Shown here: piece by piece, positions 289 to 33,254 of the stretch
How positions within the stretch are numbered: the first letter of the stretch is position 1
How the letters are laid out: every line of letters starts with the position of its first letter
Sequence record: MW074885
Source: Escherichia phage JB01
Direction: 5' to 3' (one strand)
Length of the DNA: 39,355 bases
The notes under the pieces: generated by a model
Seen by the model: only the letters and a program-made list of their open reading frames with translations
Told to the model about the DNA's origin: nothing
The model's database searches: none
Translations under genes and position numbers: made by a program

Positions 289-827
289 TGGGATGCATAG
301 CGTGCTTAGAGAAAGACGACCGTTACCCGCACACCTGTAATAAAGGAGTTACCAATATGACCGAACGTGAACAAGAGATTATCATTAAGTTGATAGACAA
401 TAACGAGGGTCGTAGCGGAGACACATCTGGCTGTGGCCTGTTCTGCGCTGGAGTACCTTGTGGCGATTGTCCTGTAACAAACGATGAGCACATTACCTTA
501 GGTGAAATCCGAGCGATGGACCCACGTAAACCTCATCTGAATAAACTTGAGGTAACTCCTACGGATGACCAGCCTTCCGCTGAATCAATCGAAGGTGTCA
601 CTAAGCCTTCACATTACATGCTGTTTGACGACATTGAGGCTATCGAAGTGATTGCCCGTTCAATGACTCGTGAGCAGTTCAAAGGGTACTGCTTAGGGAA
701 CATCCTTAAGTACCGCCTACGTGCTGGTAAGAAGTCCGAACTGGCTTACTTAGAGAAAGACATGGCGAAAGCTGGATTCTACGGTGAACTGTACGAGAAA
801 CATAAGGATAAGTGCTATGACGCTTAA
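288..827 (+). CDS. 1.7: gp1.7-like nucleotide kinase
   Basis: ORF track 179 aa; TGATG overlap with the 1.6 stop; C-terminal region resembles T7 gp1.7; N-terminus shorter than T7 (196 aa). Confidence 0.85.
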   Translation: MGCIACLEKDDRYPHTCNKGVTNMTEREQEIIIKLIDNNEGRSGDTSGCGLFCAGVPCGDCPVTNDEHITLGEIRAMDPRKPHLNKLEVTPTDDQPSAESIEGVTKPSHYMLFDDIEAIEVIARSMTREQFKGYCLGNILKYRLRAGKKSELAYLEKDMAKAGFYGELYEKHKDKCYDA

Positions 828-4770: not shown

Positions 4771-5199
4771 ATGAGCACTGACTTAGAGAGACTTGAAAGA
4801 TTCTTGAAGATTGAGGGCGATTGCTGGCTGTTCACTGGTGGCAGGGCACATGCCTACGGAGTCTTCTGGATGGACGGTAAGAATCACAAGGCACATAGGG
4901 CGGCCTTCGAACTTTATAATGGGAGGAAACCTAATGGTGTTATATTACACTCTTGTGATAATCCTTTGTGCTGCAATCCCGCTCATCTATCTGAGGGAAC
5001 TCAGCTTGATAATATGGTGGACATGGTTAGAAAGGGACGCTCGTTAAAGGGTACGAAGAATCCCGCATGCAAGTTTACCGATGAGGATGTCAAGTTCATT
5101 CAGGAGTCTACCATGAAGGTCAAAGATTTAGCCACTCTATTCGGAGTGACGCGCCAAACAATAACCAAATGGAGGAAACATCATGTTCAAACTGATTAA
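4771..5199 (+). CDS. HNH homing endonuclease (HNH_3-type) with C-terminal HTH-like tail
   Basis: 142 aa; motifs GDCWLFTGG, AHRAAF, HSCDNPLCCNPAHL, EGTQ; sits between phi4.3 and gene 4.3. Confidence 0.8.
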   Translation: MSTDLERLERFLKIEGDCWLFTGGRAHAYGVFWMDGKNHKAHRAAFELYNGRKPNGVILHSCDNPLCCNPAHLSEGTQLDNMVDMVRKGRSLKGTKNPACKFTDEDVKFIQESTMKVKDLATLFGVTRQTITKWRKHHVQTD

Positions 5200-28799: not shown

Positions 28800-30560
28800 G
28801 TGTCTACTCAAGCCAATCGTAATGCGCTCGTAGTGGCGCAACTGAAAGGAGACTTCGTGGCGTTCCTGTTCGTCTTATGGAAGGCGTTAAACCTTCCGGT
28901 GCCAACTAAGTGTCAGATTGACATGGCTAAGGTGCTGGCGAATGGAGACAACAAGAAGTTCATCCTACAGGCTTTCCGTGGTATCGGTAAGTCGTTCATC
29001 ACATGTGCGTTCGTTGTGTGGTCCTTATGGAGAGACCCTCAGTTGAAGATACTTATCGTATCAGCCTCTAAGGAACGTGCAGACGCTAACTCCATCTTCA
29101 TTAAGAACATCATTGACCTGCTGCCATTCCTCGCTGAGCTAAAGCCAAGACCCGGACAGCGTGACTCTGTAATCAGCTTTGACGTTGGCCCAGCTAAGCC
29201 TGACCACTCTCCTAGTGTGAAATCAGTAGGTATCACTGGTCAGTTAACTGGTAGCCGTGCTGACATTATCATTGCGGATGACGTTGAGATTCCGTCTAAC
29301 AGTGCGACTATGGGTGCCCGTGAGAAGCTATGGACTCTCGTTCAGGAGTTCGCTGCGTTACTTAAACCGCTGCCTTCCTCTCGTGTTATCTACCTTGGAA
29401 CACCTCAGACCGAGATGACTCTCTATAAGGAACTTGAGGATAACCGTGGGTACACCACTATCATCTGGCCCGCTCTGTACCCAAGGACACGCGAAGAGAA
29501 CCTCTATTACTCACAACGTCTTGCTCCTATGTTACGTGCTGAGTACGATGAGAACCCTGAGGCACTCGCTGGGACTCCTACAGACCCAGTGCGCTTTGAC
29601 CGTGATGACCTCCGTGAACGTGAGTTGGAATACGGTAAGGCTGGCTTTACGTTACAGTTCATGCTTAACCCGAACCTGAGTGATGCCGAGAAGTACCCTC
29701 TGAGGCTCCGTGACGCTATCGTAGCGGCCTTAGACTTAGAGAAGGCACCAATGCATTACCAGTGGCTTCCGAACCGTCAGAACATCATTGAGGACCTTCC
29801 TAACGTGGGCCTTAAGGGTGATGACCTGCATACGTATCATGATTGCTCCAACAACTCTGGTCAGTATCAACAGAAGATTCTGGTCATTGACCCTAGTGGT
29901 CGCGGTAAGGACGAAACAGGTTACTCTGTGCTGTACACCCTGAACGGTTACATCTACCTAATGGAAGCTGGAGGTTTCCGTGATGGTTACTCTGATAAGA
30001 CCCTTGAGTTGCTCGCTAAGAAAGCGAAGCAATGGGGAGTCCAGACGGTTGTCTACGAGAGTAACTTCGGTGACGGTATGTTTGGTAAGGTGTTCAGTCC
30101 TATCCTTCTTAAACACCACAATTGCGCTATGGAAGAGATTCGTGCTCGTGGTATGAAGGAGATGCGTATTTGTGATACCCTTGAGCCAGTCATGCAGACT
30201 CACCGCCTTGTCATTCGTGATGAGGTCATTAGGGCAGACTACCAGTCCGCTCGTGATATAGACGGTAAGCATGACGTTAAGTACTCACTGTTCTACCAGA
30301 TGACACGTATCACTCGTGAGAAAGGTGCTCTGGCTCATGATGACCGATTGGATGCCCTTGCGTTAGGCATTGAGTATCTCCGTGAGTCCATGCAGTTGGA
30401 TTCCGTTAAGGTCGAAGGTGAAGTGCTTGCTGACTTCCTTGAGGAGCACATGATGCGTCCTACGGTTGCTGCTACGCATATCATTGAGATGTCTGTAGGA
30501 GGAGTTGATGTGTACTCTGAGGACGATGAGGGTTACGGTACGTCTTTCATTGAGTGGTGA
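28800..30560 (+). CDS. 19: gp19 terminase large subunit
   Basis: 586 aa, GTG start after aaggagg SD; same length as T7 gp19. Confidence 0.97.
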
Positions 30561-30597
30561 TTTACGAGGCCAAGGAAGGCCAATTTAAGGAGGTATT

Positions 30598-31041
30598 ATG
30601 ATAAGCAAGAAGAAGTATGTGATTGATAAGGAGACTGGCTGCTGGAACTTTAAGGGATGCAGGACGAAGACTGGATATGGTCGCATTCGTGTAAACGGAG
30701 TCCATTGGATGGCCCACAGGTATTCCCTGAGTTGTCATCTAGGCAGACCGATAGCTGACGGAATGGTTGTGATGCACCTGTGTGATAATCCTTCATGTGT
30801 TAACCCTGAGCACCTTAAGGAAGGGACTCAGAAGGAGAACATAGAAGACTGCATCTCAAAAGGTCGCGCAACTAAGGCCACAGGTAAACGTGATGCGTCT
30901 AAGAGAGACCCTAGCGAGGAACGTAAGGCTATAGTGGTTCGTAGATACCATAAAGGCTGGACTGCAACGTCCATAGCGAGATACCATAAGCTCTCTGTGG
31001 CGTGGGTCAAGAGGGTCATTGAGGAGTACCTAAGTGATTGA
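30598..31041 (+). CDS. HNH homing endonuclease (HNH_3-type) with C-terminal HTH-like tail
   Basis: 147 aa; motifs GCWNFKGC, GYGRIRVNG, AHRYS, HLCDNPSCVNPEHL, EGTQ; between gene 19 and phiOR. Confidence 0.8.
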   Translation: MISKKKYVIDKETGCWNFKGCRTKTGYGRIRVNGVHWMAHRYSLSCHLGRPIADGMVVMHLCDNPSCVNPEHLKEGTQKENIEDCISKGRATKATGKRDASKRDPSEERKAIVVRRYHKGWTATSIARYHKLSVAWVKRVIEEYLSD

Positions 31042-31092
31042 TATTTGAAATTAGTGATACAGGTATAAGTATATGATTACAGACCATTATTC

Positions 31093-31115
31093 TAATTCGA
31101 CTCACTATAGGGAGA
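31093..31115 (+). promoter_or_regulatory. phage RNAP promoter phiOR-like
   Basis: taattcgactcactatagggaga, one mismatch to consensus, upstream of gene 19.5. Confidence 0.75.
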
Positions 31116-31205
31116 AGCCTACCTAAAGATTACTATTAGACTTAAAGTGTCCTATAAGGGTAGGTTGTTATTATATGAATACAACCATCATAAAGGAGGA
31201 GACTC

Positions 31206-31355
31206 ATGTTCCGCTTATTGTTGAACCTGCTGCGGCATAGAGTCACCTACCGCTTTCTTATGGTACTTTGTGCTGCCCTTGGGTACGCATCTCTTAATGG
31301 AGACCTCAGTTCACTGGAGTCTACCGTTTGCTCTATACTCACTTGTAGCGATTAG
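31206..31355 (+). CDS. 19.5: gp19.5 small membrane-type protein
   Basis: 49 aa MFRLLLNLLRHRVTYRFLMVLCAALGYASL... with aaggagga SD; below the ORF-track length cutoff. Confidence 0.8.
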   Translation: MFRLLLNLLRHRVTYRFLMVLCAALGYASLNGDLSSLESTVCSILTCSD

Positions 31356-31596
31356 GGTCTTACTGACAGACTGATGGCTCACCGAGGGATTCAGCGGTAT
31401 GATTGCATCACACCACTTCATCCCTATAGAGTCAAGTCCTAAGGTATACCCCATAAAGAGCCTCTAATGGTCTATCCGTAAGGTCTATACCTAAAGATAG
31501 GCCATCTTATCAGTATCACCTAAAGAGGGTCTTAGAGAGGGCCTAGGGAGTTCCTAGAGGGTCCTTTAAAATATACCATAAAAATCTGAGTGACTA

Positions 31597-31766
31597 TCTC
31601 ACAGTGTACGGACCCAAAGTTCCCCCATAGGGGTACCTAAAGCCCAGCCAATCACCTAAAGTTACCTTTCGGTTGACCTTGAGGGTCCCTAAGGGTTGGG
31701 GTTTACCTTTGAGTGGGACTTTGGGTTTACCTTTGAGTGTTACCTTGAGTGTCTCTATGTGTCCCT
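31597..31766. repeat. direct terminal repeat region (single collapsed copy at the genome-end junction)
   Basis: begins tctcacagtgtacgga and ends gtgtccct, matching the T7 terminal-repeat boundaries as I recall them; contains internal direct repeat gggtttacctttgagtg x2. Confidence 0.5.
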
Positions 31767-31779
31767 ATCTGTTACAGTC

Positions 31780-31842
31780 TCCTAAAGTCACCTCCTAAAG
31801 TCACCTCCTAAAGTCACCTCCTAAAGTCACCTCCTAACGTCC
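31780..31842. repeat. 13-bp tandem array tcctaaagtcacc x4 plus a degenerate fifth copy
   Basis: perfect copies at 31780, 31793, 31806, 31819; part of the cctaaag-rich left-end repeat region. Confidence 0.85.
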
Positions 31843-32020
31843 TTCCTAAAGCCTACACCTAAAGACACCATCAAGTCAATGCCTATCTTAAAGTATAGAC
31901 CTAAAGACCATTCCTAAAGACCAGACCTAAAGACACTACATAAAGACCATACCTAAAGACGCCTTGTTGTTAGCCATAAAGGGATAATCTTCAATCATTG
32001 TCTTTAACCATTGTCTTTAT

Positions 32021-32043
32021 TAATACGACTCACTATAGAGAGA
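32021..32043 (+). promoter_or_regulatory. phage RNAP promoter phiOL-like
   Basis: taatacgactcactatagagaga preceded by the duplicated cattgtcttta motif. Confidence 0.75.
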
Positions 32044-32097
32044 CTACTTAAAGAGTCCTTAAAGATGGATTAATTTAAAGATTTATTAAAAAGAGTA

Positions 32098-32126
32098 TTG
32101 ACTTTAAGTCTAACCTATAGGATACT
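32098..32126 (+). promoter_or_regulatory. host sigma70 early promoter A1
   Basis: -35 TTGACT (32098-32103), 17-nt spacer, -10 GATACT (32121-32126). Confidence 0.8.
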
Positions 32127-32223
32127 TTGAGCCATCGAGAGGGACACGGTGAATAGCCATCCTAATCGACACCGGGTCAAACGGTTAAGTAGACAGCCTG
32201 ATAAGTCGTATGAAAAACAGGTA

Positions 32224-32253
32224 TTGACAACATGAAGTAACATGAAGTAAGAT
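32224..32253 (+). promoter_or_regulatory. host sigma70 early promoter A2
   Basis: -35 TTGACA (32224-32229), 18-nt spacer, -10 TAAGAT (32248-32253). Confidence 0.75.
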
Positions 32254-32334
32254 ACACAACGTAGCGTCAACCACTGACACGGTGTCTTCTAGGTGACTTA
32301 AGCGCACCACGGCACATAAAGTGAAACAAAACGG

Positions 32335-32363
32335 TTGACAACATGAAGTAAACACGGTACGAT
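32335..32363 (+). promoter_or_regulatory. host sigma70 early promoter A3
   Basis: -35 TTGACA (32335-32340), 17-nt spacer, -10 TACGAT (32358-32363). Confidence 0.75.
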
Positions 32364-32469
32364 GTACCACATGAAACGACAGTGAGTCACCACACTGAAA
32401 GGTGATGCGGTCTAACGAAACCTGACCAAAGACGCTCTTTAACAATCTGGTAAATAGCTCTTGAGTGCA

Positions 32470-32520
32470 TAGATAGTGGATAACTCAAGGGTATCGCAAG
32501 GTGCCCTTTATGATATTCAC
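32470..32520 (+). promoter_or_regulatory. RNase III-type processing site, copy 1 (R0.3-like)
   Basis: gataactcaagggtatcgcaaggtgccctttatgatattcac; core at 32483-32508 repeated at 32837-32862. Confidence 0.5.
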
Positions 32521-32545
32521 TTAACTACTAAAGGAATCACACACA

Positions 32546-32830
32546 ATGCGCTTAAGTAAAGAGACAGCAATAGCTATGCGTCAAGCAATCAAATCCAGAG
32601 CAGCTCACAACGTGGGAGGTCTTGGGGATGTTGTACGGACGTATAAAGCTAAAGGTCTAACATTCCGCCGCTTTATGTGGGACTGTTTCCACGCTGTAGG
32701 CTTTAACGAGACAACCCGAATAATCGCTGAGCATAACACGGTGACAGTGATTGGAGGGCATATAACAGATGTGAACGATGCACACATTGAGACAATGCTC
32801 AAGGTTGCACTTAAAGACTTGAAATATTAG
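32546..32830 (+). CDS. hypothetical early protein upstream of ocr (no T7 counterpart)
   Basis: 94-aa ORF, ATG at 32546; first gene after A1-A3; flanked by duplicated processing-site element; no family recognised. Confidence 0.7.
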   Translation: MRLSKETAIAMRQAIKSRAAHNVGGLGDVVRTYKAKGLTFRRFMWDCFHAVGFNETTRIIAEHNTVTVIGGHITDVNDAHIETMLKVALKDLKY

Positions 32831-32903: not shown

Positions 32904-33254
32904 ATGGCTATGTCTAACATGACTTACAACAACGTTTTCGACCACGCTTACGAAATGCTGAAAGAAAACATCCGTTATGATGACATCCGCGACACTGATG
33001 ACCTGCATGATGCTATTCACATGGCTGCCGATAATGCAGTTCCGCACTACTACGCTGACATCTTTAGCGTAATGGCAAGCGAGGGCATTGACCTTGAGTT
33101 CGAAGACTCTGGTCTTATGCCGGACACCAAGGACGTAATCCGCATCCTGCAAGCTCGCATCTATGAGCAACTCACGATTGACCTCTGGGAAGACGCTGAG
33201 GACTTACTGAACGAGTACCTTGAGGAAGTCGAGGAAGAGGAAGAGGAATTATAA
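32904..33254 (+). CDS. ocr: gp0.3 Ocr DNA-mimic anti-restriction protein
   Basis: 116 aa [27 protein letters not shown]..., highly acidic with [10 protein letters not shown] tail. Confidence 0.93.

Follow-up and report, generated by a model that had tools for sequence, protein, structure and literature searches.

The endonuclease I-HmuI of Bacillus phage SPO1 (PDB 1u3e) is an HNH_3-type enzyme in which an N-terminal beta-sheet DNA-binding region and an HNH beta-beta-alpha-metal motif are combined with a helix-turn-helix on an extended linker. Its gene lies within a group I intron, and the enzyme nicks a single strand. Phage T7 has two putative homing endonucleases of the HNH_3 type and of the same architecture, gp2.8 (encoded after gene 2.5) and gp7.7 (encoded after gene 7.3), both with a C-terminal helix-turn-helix. 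HNH proteins of the HK97 gp74 type, which are encoded beside the terminase genes near the genome end, are required for cutting in cos phages. HNH genes adjoining terminase genes and cos sites form a known class, which is of the PF01844 type and has a [CxxC]2 zinc site (PMC3592412). For SegF of phage T4, intronless homing with marker exclusion is described as established (Belle, Landthaler and Shub 2002, as cited in PMC8351571).

The gene analyzed here is located between gene 19, which encodes the large terminase, and gene 19.5 of Escherichia phage JB01. The window, i.e. the whole stretch of DNA that was analyzed (sequence record MW074885, 39,355 nt), is a rotated T7-like genome. The positions of the relevant features are compiled in Table 1. 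The gene itself is already known, because relatives have been annotated at the same locus, and the window adds one more allele. The orthologue in phage 13a encodes gp19.4, which belongs to the PHROG 6254 group, and the two have in common the order of the locus (gene 19, HNH gene, phiOR, gene 19.5), the length and the domain order. Further orthologues are found in Escherichia phages N30, HZ2R8, HZP2, CICC 80001, IME390, pO111, and JeanTinguely, and in Salmonella phage Vi06. The existing labels are gp19.4 (13a), "7.7" (Vi06), and "HNH/homing endonuclease" (N30, HZ2R8, HZP2, CICC 80001, IME390, JeanTinguely). Several RefSeq records bear the label "HNH endonuclease". The proteins of the N30 type (N30, HZ2R8, CICC 80001, IME390, pO111) are 95–97% identical to the protein encoded in the window, and those of the 13a/Vi06 type are 68–70% identical, while the phiOR variant TAATTCGACTCACTATAGGGAGA is common to all of them. 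The best database proteins are 96–97% identical, and none of the entries is identical to this allele. In the literature searched, no functional study of the gene or a close homologue was found that addressed cleavage, target site or mobility, and the matches to "gp19.4" or "gene 19.4" were irrelevant.

Table 1. Features of the gene 19 to gene 19.5 region and further sites of the window
Feature	Position	Strand	Basis
Gene 19 (large terminase, 586 aa), upstream flank	28800..30560	+	ORF list, annotated matches
Stop codon TGA of gene 19	30558-30560	+	sequence
Hairpin GGCC-AAGGAA-GGCC, 3' of the gene 19 stop codon, left edge of the cassette	30568..30581	+	sequence
Shine-Dalgarno motif AAGGAGG, 4 nt 5' of the endonuclease ATG	30587..30593	+	sequence
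Predicted HNH homing endonuclease gene, 147 aa	30598..31041	+	ORF list, Pfam HNH_3 and HTH_23, PHROG 6254
Predicted nuclease domain, residues 1-90	30598..30867	+	52-sequence alignment, AlphaFold2, Foldseek
Predicted C-terminal helix-turn-helix domain, residues ~104-146	30907..31035	+	Pfam HTH_23, AlphaFold2 helices
phiOR-type T7 RNA polymerase promoter variant TAATTCGACTCACTATAGGGAGA	31093..31115	+	pattern search, 1 mismatch to T7 consensus
Replacement cassette: endonuclease gene, phiOR variant and 19.5 leader	30565..31183	+	BLASTN breakpoints
Gene 19.5, downstream flank	31206..31355	+	ORF list, PHROG 2193, T7 and 13a annotation
phiOL (promoter)	32021..32043		
Gene 0.3, after phiOL	from 32904		
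Other HNH gene, between gene 4 and gene 4.3	4771..5199		

A preliminary description of this region, made from the sequence alone, had reported an ORF of 147 codons between the stop codon of gene 19 and a phiOR-like promoter and had read it as a gene for an HNH homing endonuclease. The ORF is present on the plus strand exactly as described, and the motifs that had been singled out (GCWNFKGC, GYGRIRVNG, AHRYS, and HLCDNPSCVNPEHL) are all contained in its translation. It is not a chance ORF, because the translation matches Pfam HNH_3 (PF13392; residues 39–81, 35.2 bits versus a cutoff of 24.8) and Pfam HTH_23 (PF13384; residues 104–145, 26.5 bits versus a cutoff of 24.6), and because PHROG 6254, "HNH endonuclease", matches over the full length with an E value of 8e-60. 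A search against NCBIfam yielded sub-threshold noise only.

The region around the gene was searched for signals that could direct its expression. A pattern search for T7-type promoters that allowed one mismatch found 10 sites in the window versus 0 in shuffled sequence. The phiOR variant, which has been annotated as phiOR in phage 13a as well, is situated 3' of the endonuclease gene and therefore cannot drive it. The endonuclease gene would be carried on late (class III) transcripts that also cover the terminase gene, because the pattern search revealed no T7-type promoter between phi17 (25628) and the ORF, and a terminator scan revealed no terminator-like site within positions 30300–31500, which include the stretch from gene 19 to gene 19.5. 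Matches resembling sigma-70 promoters around genes 19 to 19.5 were at chance level only. The hairpin just downstream of the gene 19 stop codon is part of a region (30558–30600) for which RNAfold predicted -7.6 kcal/mol, and the T7 allele has another hairpin at this position. An intron-encoded or intein-encoded endonuclease was ruled out. The ORF is intergenic, it has its own start codon and a strong Shine-Dalgarno motif, and an Rfam scan of positions 30000–32600 with E values up to 1 found neither an intron nor any other RNA family.

Next, the borders of the divergent region were determined. BLASTN homology to T7 and to Serratia phage vB_SmaP-UFV01 ends at position 30564 and resumes at position 31184, and both junctions were confirmed by direct reading. 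The left breakpoint is thus located 4 nt past the stop codon of gene 19, and the right breakpoint 22 nt before the ATG of gene 19.5. Between them, the window contains 619 bp, whereas T7 and UFV01 have an unrelated spacer of 231 bp without an ORF between the two genes. The only part in which the two types of spacer are alike is the promoter core, with about 80% identity. Because the spacers differ throughout, a replacement of the whole spacer has taken place and not a simple insertion. A global three-way MAFFT alignment that included T7 force-aligned the unrelated spacers and was misleading, and the BLASTN breakpoints and displays of the junctions were used instead. The view of the preliminary description that the spacer is unlike that of T7, and that T7 has no counterpart of the ORF, holds for this locus, where indeed the whole spacer differs, but it does not hold for the T7 genome, which encodes the paralogues gp2.8 and gp7.7 elsewhere.

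A sensitive search with the part of the spacer that lies 3' of the ORF (31036–31210) retrieved 31 phage records, and the HNH gene was present in each of them. None of the 31 records contained an "empty" site, i.e. a spacer of the window type without the endonuclease gene. Conversely, tblastn found no match to a remnant of the HNH gene in the T7-type spacer. As every record with this spacer has the HNH gene, the gene and the phiOR-spacer variant are inherited as one unit. This is the mildly new point of the analysis: it is the entire spacer between the two genes, phiOR variant included, that forms the mobile unit. This linkage also narrows the likely target of the enzyme to the 231-bp spacer of the T7 type.

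The distribution of the cassette among related phages turned out to be patchy. In the phage collection, the genome of UFV01 is the most similar one (94.9% identity over 21 kb) and lacks the cassette; that of Escherichia phage N30 comes second (94.2%). Altogether, the cassette is present in 29–31 of the 180 phage records of the collection that match the flanks. In IMG/VR, 8 close relatives have it and 10 lack it, when close relatives are defined by a C-terminus of the large terminase that is at least 96% identical. The cassette is absent from T7, UFV01, and eight other close relatives in which the C-terminal 149 aa of the large terminase are 98–99% identical. Comparative genomics of the spacer, which the preliminary description had suggested, has thus made clear that the ORF does not belong to the conserved core, as both the closest relative UFV01 and T7 do without it, and the outcome that the preliminary description had named as refuting its reading did not occur in this comparison. 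All examined homologues that are at least 50% identical are encoded directly 3' of the large terminase gene, and homologues of this degree occupy the terminase locus in Teseptimavirus (13a gp19.4, Vi06 "7.7"), Berlinvirus (Yep-phi), and Helsettvirus (fPS-86).

In a neighbor-joining tree built from the 3'-terminal 1500 nt of gene 19, which has no bootstrap support and for which recombination is likely, carriers and non-carriers were interleaved, and the three nearest gene 19 neighbors of this genome all lacked the cassette. These 1500 nt contained no diagnostic or near-diagnostic column, so that no substitution in this region tracks the cassette. In the 3' flank, the first 400 nt from the ribosome-binding site of gene 19.5 contained one near-diagnostic indel and again no tracking substitution. 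The absence of flanking substitutions that track the cassette shows that the flanks have been reshuffled relative to it. Among near-identical phages, the presence of the cassette is thus independent of the sequence on either side. This patchy presence, the sharp boundaries, the linkage to the phiOR variant and the constant locus, together with the purifying selection and the fast-diverging C-terminal domains described below, are the hallmarks of a free-standing homing endonuclease gene. A co-conversion tract or a target-site polymorphism was not found in the flanks of the carriers (1500 nt to the left, 400 nt to the right). Such a tract is not a strict hallmark of these genes, and none would be seen if the target were part of the replaced spacer or if recombination had removed the traces. 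Without a tract or a resistance polymorphism in the flanks, the target cannot be located from the sequence. If the enzyme distinguishes carriers from non-carriers, its site is most likely to lie in the T7-type spacer or at the junctions of that spacer.

The protein was characterized by an alignment with 52 homologues and by structure prediction. Eleven residues (C15, H40, H60, C62, C67, N69, P70, H72, L73, N81, and G89) are invariant in the 52 homologues, and the alignment reveals the motif H-x-C-D-N-P-x-C-x-N-P-x-H. The AlphaFold2 model, for which the same alignment was the input, has a mean pLDDT of 90.1. In the nuclease part it contains an N-terminal beta-sheet and a beta-beta-alpha-metal finger, which is formed by strands 57–60 and 73–76 and helix 78–88. 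A basic linker (residues ~89–105) that was modeled with low confidence leads to three C-terminal helices (107–118, 123–130, 134–146). The preliminary description had noted a basic C-terminal tail. The basic character applies to the linker, but the protein does not end in a tail, as a folded helix-turn-helix (residues ~107–146) is predicted to follow.

A Foldseek comparison of the model with the PDB placed I-HmuI at rank 1, with a probability of 1.00, an E value of 2.3e-3, and a TM score of about 0.4, the E value being modest because the two-domain model is flexible. I-PpoI followed at rank 2 (E = 3e-2), and the C-terminus matched helix-turn-helix domains of the Fis/resolvase type. When the 147-aa sequence was searched against PDB chains, no match with an E value of up to 1 was obtained, and therefore the structural link to I-HmuI comes solely from the comparison of folds. 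In addition to the HNH_3 type, the protein has in common with I-HmuI the N-terminal beta-sheet, the beta-beta-alpha-metal motif, and the helix-turn-helix on an extended linker; the sequences are 27% identical over 93 aligned columns. It differs from I-HmuI in the residues of a putative zinc site, C15, C62, C67, and H72, and its gene stands alone between two phage genes and is not part of an intron. By analogy with the zinc loop of I-PpoI, these four residues suggest a structural zinc site. From the family it is presumed that H60 is the general base and N81 a metal ligand. An assignment to the His-Cys box endonucleases of the I-PpoI type was considered and rejected, as the score for PF05551 was 25.9 bits, below the cutoff of 27, and the likeness to I-PpoI is limited to the zinc loop and the metal finger. 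The profile, the predicted fold together with the residues, and the separate module for DNA binding all place the protein in the HNH_3 family of I-HmuI-like enzymes. Together with the patchy distribution, the domain matches, the conserved residues, and the I-HmuI-like fold, they bear out the earlier reading as a predicted HNH homing endonuclease.

In summary, we consider it likely that the gene is a free-standing homing endonuclease gene of the HNH_3 (I-HmuI-like) type on a 619-bp cassette that has replaced the T7-type spacer between genes 19 and 19.5. The cassette could spread as follows. When the phage shares a host cell with a cassette-free relative, its endonuclease would bind DNA via the beta-sheet and helix-turn-helix modules, and the DNA of the rival phage would be nicked or cut at or near the T7-type spacer, with H60 and N81 in the presumed catalytic roles. 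The break would be repaired by phage recombination from the cassette-bearing genome, and genes 19 and 19.5 would supply the homology. The repair would copy the endonuclease gene and the linked phiOR spacer into the recipient, which would amount to intronless homing and a localized marker exclusion. The carrier is proposed to be immune because the sequence of its own spacer is entirely different. The closest parallel to this scheme is found in the Seg-type genes of T4, e.g. the gene for SegF, which are likewise free-standing between conserved genes and present in some relatives only, and which are copied by break repair along with flanking DNA (Belle et al. 2002, as cited in PMC8351571), as is proposed here; the Seg proteins are GIY-YIG enzymes, whereas the protein of this locus is an HNH enzyme.

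The condition of the gene was analyzed with eight alleles of the window type. All of them are full length and free of frameshifts and stop codons. In pairwise comparisons, dN/dS was 0.05–0.11 for the endonuclease gene (about 0.09 for the whole gene) and dS was 0.15–0.5; the respective values for the terminase gene were 0.02–0.05 and 0.23–0.37. The endonuclease gene is thus under purifying selection and not decaying, and therefore the encoded endonuclease is probably active. However, strong purifying selection and a dS in the range of the terminase gene would also fit long-term vertical retention because the phage benefits, in place of frequent homing. A comparison of the alleles at the locus showed that the nuclease domain is well conserved and that the linker and the helix-turn-helix have strongly diverged. 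With respect to the 13a and Vi06 proteins, for example, the nuclease domain is about 93% identical, and the strong divergence concerns residues ~88–135. A conserved nuclease with a diverging DNA-binding part is consistent with the modular evolution that is usual for such enzymes.

The same selection data are also compatible with selection that acts on the phage itself, and the protein might be kept mainly because the phage profits from it, either through DNA binding that counters host defense or through an attack on co-infecting relatives, with homing being secondary. This explanation overlaps with homing, and the two are not mutually exclusive. HNH homing endonucleases have been reported to weaken the defense system GAPS4 even when they are catalytically dead, which was observed with expressed bas24_0090 and T7 gp3.8, and T7 without genes 2.8, 3.8, and 7.7 was outcompeted by the wild type only in the presence of GAPS4 (preprint, doi 10.1101/2025.09.07.674715). 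The nuclease domain of the protein encoded in the window is 39–45% identical to those of gp2.8 and gp7.7. However, gp3.8 and bas24_0090 are not close homologues, and genes 2.8 and 7.7 were removed only within the triple deletion. Furthermore, the closest relatives lack the gene, so that any benefit would have to be conditional. The sequence contains nothing that would tell an anti-defense role from plain homing, and the source is a preprint. A function that serves mainly the phage is therefore possible, but it appears unlikely to us.

A more specific version concerns the location of the presumed target. The phiOR of T7 is also a secondary replication origin and is close to the concatemer-processing region. 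The enzyme would be produced late, at the same time as the terminase, and a cut in the T7-type spacer would thus be made beside the packaging end of the rival genome. It could turn the enzyme into an interference weapon in mixed infections, for which the linked phiOR spacer would be the immunity allele, and DNA binding alone might in addition blunt break-sensing defense of the GAPS4 type. We regard this as a speculative possibility with a rather low chance of being correct. If it were true, the cassette would be a two-part module of a weapon and an immune promoter region and not a plain selfish gene.

A homing endonuclease that is still functional is clearly favored over a catalytically dead relic, which would either bind DNA only, e.g. 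as a regulator near phiOR, or have no function at all. Many homing endonuclease genes decay after fixation, and the helix-turn-helix domain of this one is intact. Nevertheless, none of the residues that are invariant across the 52 homologues is missing, among them the presumed general base H60 and the presumed metal ligand N81, and neither the dN/dS of the whole gene nor the eight intact alleles are indicative of decay. A relic is thus quite improbable. The least probable explanation, which we hardly consider credible, is that of a terminase-associated HNH protein that aids the large terminase in cutting concatemers at packaging, as HK97 gp74 does: the gene does lie directly 3' of the large terminase gene, about 0.6–1 kb from the region of the genome end, is probably co-transcribed with the terminase gene, and resembles in its location the known class of HNH genes that adjoin terminase genes and cos sites, but that class is characterized by PF01844 and [CxxC]2 zinc sites (PMC3592412) and PF01844 is absent from the Pfam matches of the protein with E values up to 1, the HK97 gp74-type genes are conserved in cos phages whereas this gene is patchy and dispensable in a group of phages whose genomes have direct terminal repeats, as annotated for 13a and fPS-86, and not cos ends, DNA is packaged without it in T7, in UFV01, and in roughly half of the close relatives, and the T7 paralogues gp2.8 and gp7.7 are encoded far from the terminase gene. 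The effect on concatemer processing that the preliminary description had envisaged accordingly has no support, as related phages that lack the gene are viable and the protein belongs to another type than the terminase-associated HNH enzymes.

The finding concerns an ordinary selfish nuclease gene and has little significance beyond a correct annotation. The choice and the location of their HNH genes account for most of the differences among T7-type phages, and such differences are relevant to competition between phages and, if the GAPS4 preprint holds, to anti-defense.

The genome contains a second HNH gene, which is located between gene 4 and gene 4.3 (Table 1). The two HNH proteins are 44% identical over 84 aa in a pairwise alignment, which corresponds to the nuclease domain, and beyond this domain nothing recognizable is shared, in line with the strong divergence that had been noted from the sequence before. 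The protein encoded between genes 4 and 4.3 shares about 44% identity with both T7 gp2.8 and T7 gp7.7 (BLASTP). For the nuclease domain of the terminase-linked protein, BLASTP identities were 45% to gp7.7 and 39% to gp2.8, while its C-terminal domain is unrelated in sequence to those of the two T7 proteins, which are encoded at other loci. The T7 genes 2.8, 3.8, 5.3, and 7.7 are absent from the genome of the window. T7, for its part, has no counterpart between genes 19 and 19.5 but has the paralogues gp2.8 and gp7.7 elsewhere. The two genomes thus differ in the HNH sites that are occupied, and an independent acquisition of the two HNH genes, as proposed in the preliminary description, is the simplest reading. 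The loss and gain of HNH genes at differing loci is the usual turnover of such elements.

The endonuclease genes that occupy the gene 19-19.5 spacer in phages 13a, Vi06, Yep-phi and fPS-86 were compared with the window gene. The nuclease domain turned out to be nearly identical in these alleles. The linker and the helix-turn-helix were swapped or strongly diverged, and the overall identity of the window protein to the 13a allele was 70%. Because the nuclease domain is kept and the linker and helix-turn-helix diverge, the protein sequences suggest that alleles within one genus differ in target specificity.

Features of the window and of the compared loci
Feature	Sequence	Coordinates	Strand	Position or basis
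Same-locus endonuclease allele	phage 13a (L002)	798..1259		gene 19-19.5 spacer
Same-locus endonuclease allele	Yep-phi (L003)	998..1456		gene 19-19.5 spacer
Same-locus endonuclease allele	fPS-86 (L004)	998..1447		gene 19-19.5 spacer
Same-locus endonuclease allele	Vi06 (L013)			gene 19-19.5 spacer
Small hairpin GGCC-AAGGAA-GGCC	window	30568..30581		directly after gene 19 stop
Small hairpin TTTATGCAT...ATGCATAGG	T7 (L001)	about 762..784		directly after gene 19 stop
13-nt tandem arrays with CCTAAAG	window	31779-31843 and 31886-31960	+	7-mer count
Second HNH_3-type endonuclease gene, 142 aa	window	4771..5199	+	between gene 4 (primase/helicase) and gene 4.3
Extra early ORF, 94 aa, PHROG 9817	window	32546..32830	+	between phiOL/early promoters and gene 0.3 (32904..33254)

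The window and T7 spacer alleles have in common a hairpin after gene 19. Its presence in both despite unrelated sequences suggests that this structure has a conserved role at the 3′ terminus of gene 19 mRNA. In the flanks, only one position tracked the presence or absence of the cassette, namely an indel at position 295 of the right-flank alignment (window 31478 region), about 270 nt beyond the start of gene 19.5. With two exceptions, this indel was diagnostic of cassette carriers.

As an assembly, the window is circularly rotated: its right-end genes 19 and 19.5 run straight into the left-end elements, phiOL (32021) and then gene 0.3. Since right-end genes directly precede left-end elements there, the interval 31355..32021 contains the physical ends of the genome and the terminal repeat, which is apparently present as a single copy. 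The 7-mer CCTAAAG was found 19 times on the plus strand of the window and once on the minus strand, and 15 of the 19 plus-strand copies fall in the 830-bp stretch 31122..31952 between phiOR and phiOL. The tandem arrays resemble the short repeats that adjoin the terminal repeat of T7. The first copy of the stretch, at 31122, is located within the endonuclease cassette, just 3′ of phiOR (end 31115); the T7 phiOR leader contains no copy.

At the gene 4/gene 4.3 site, which carries the second HNH_3 gene in the window, T7 is empty. The encoded protein shows about 44% identity to T7 gp2.8 and gp7.7, and the T7 genes 2.8, 3.8, 5.3 and 7.7 are all absent from the window. T7 also has no gene at the place of the extra early ORF. 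Because this early gene directly precedes the anti-restriction gene, it could be an anti-defence candidate.
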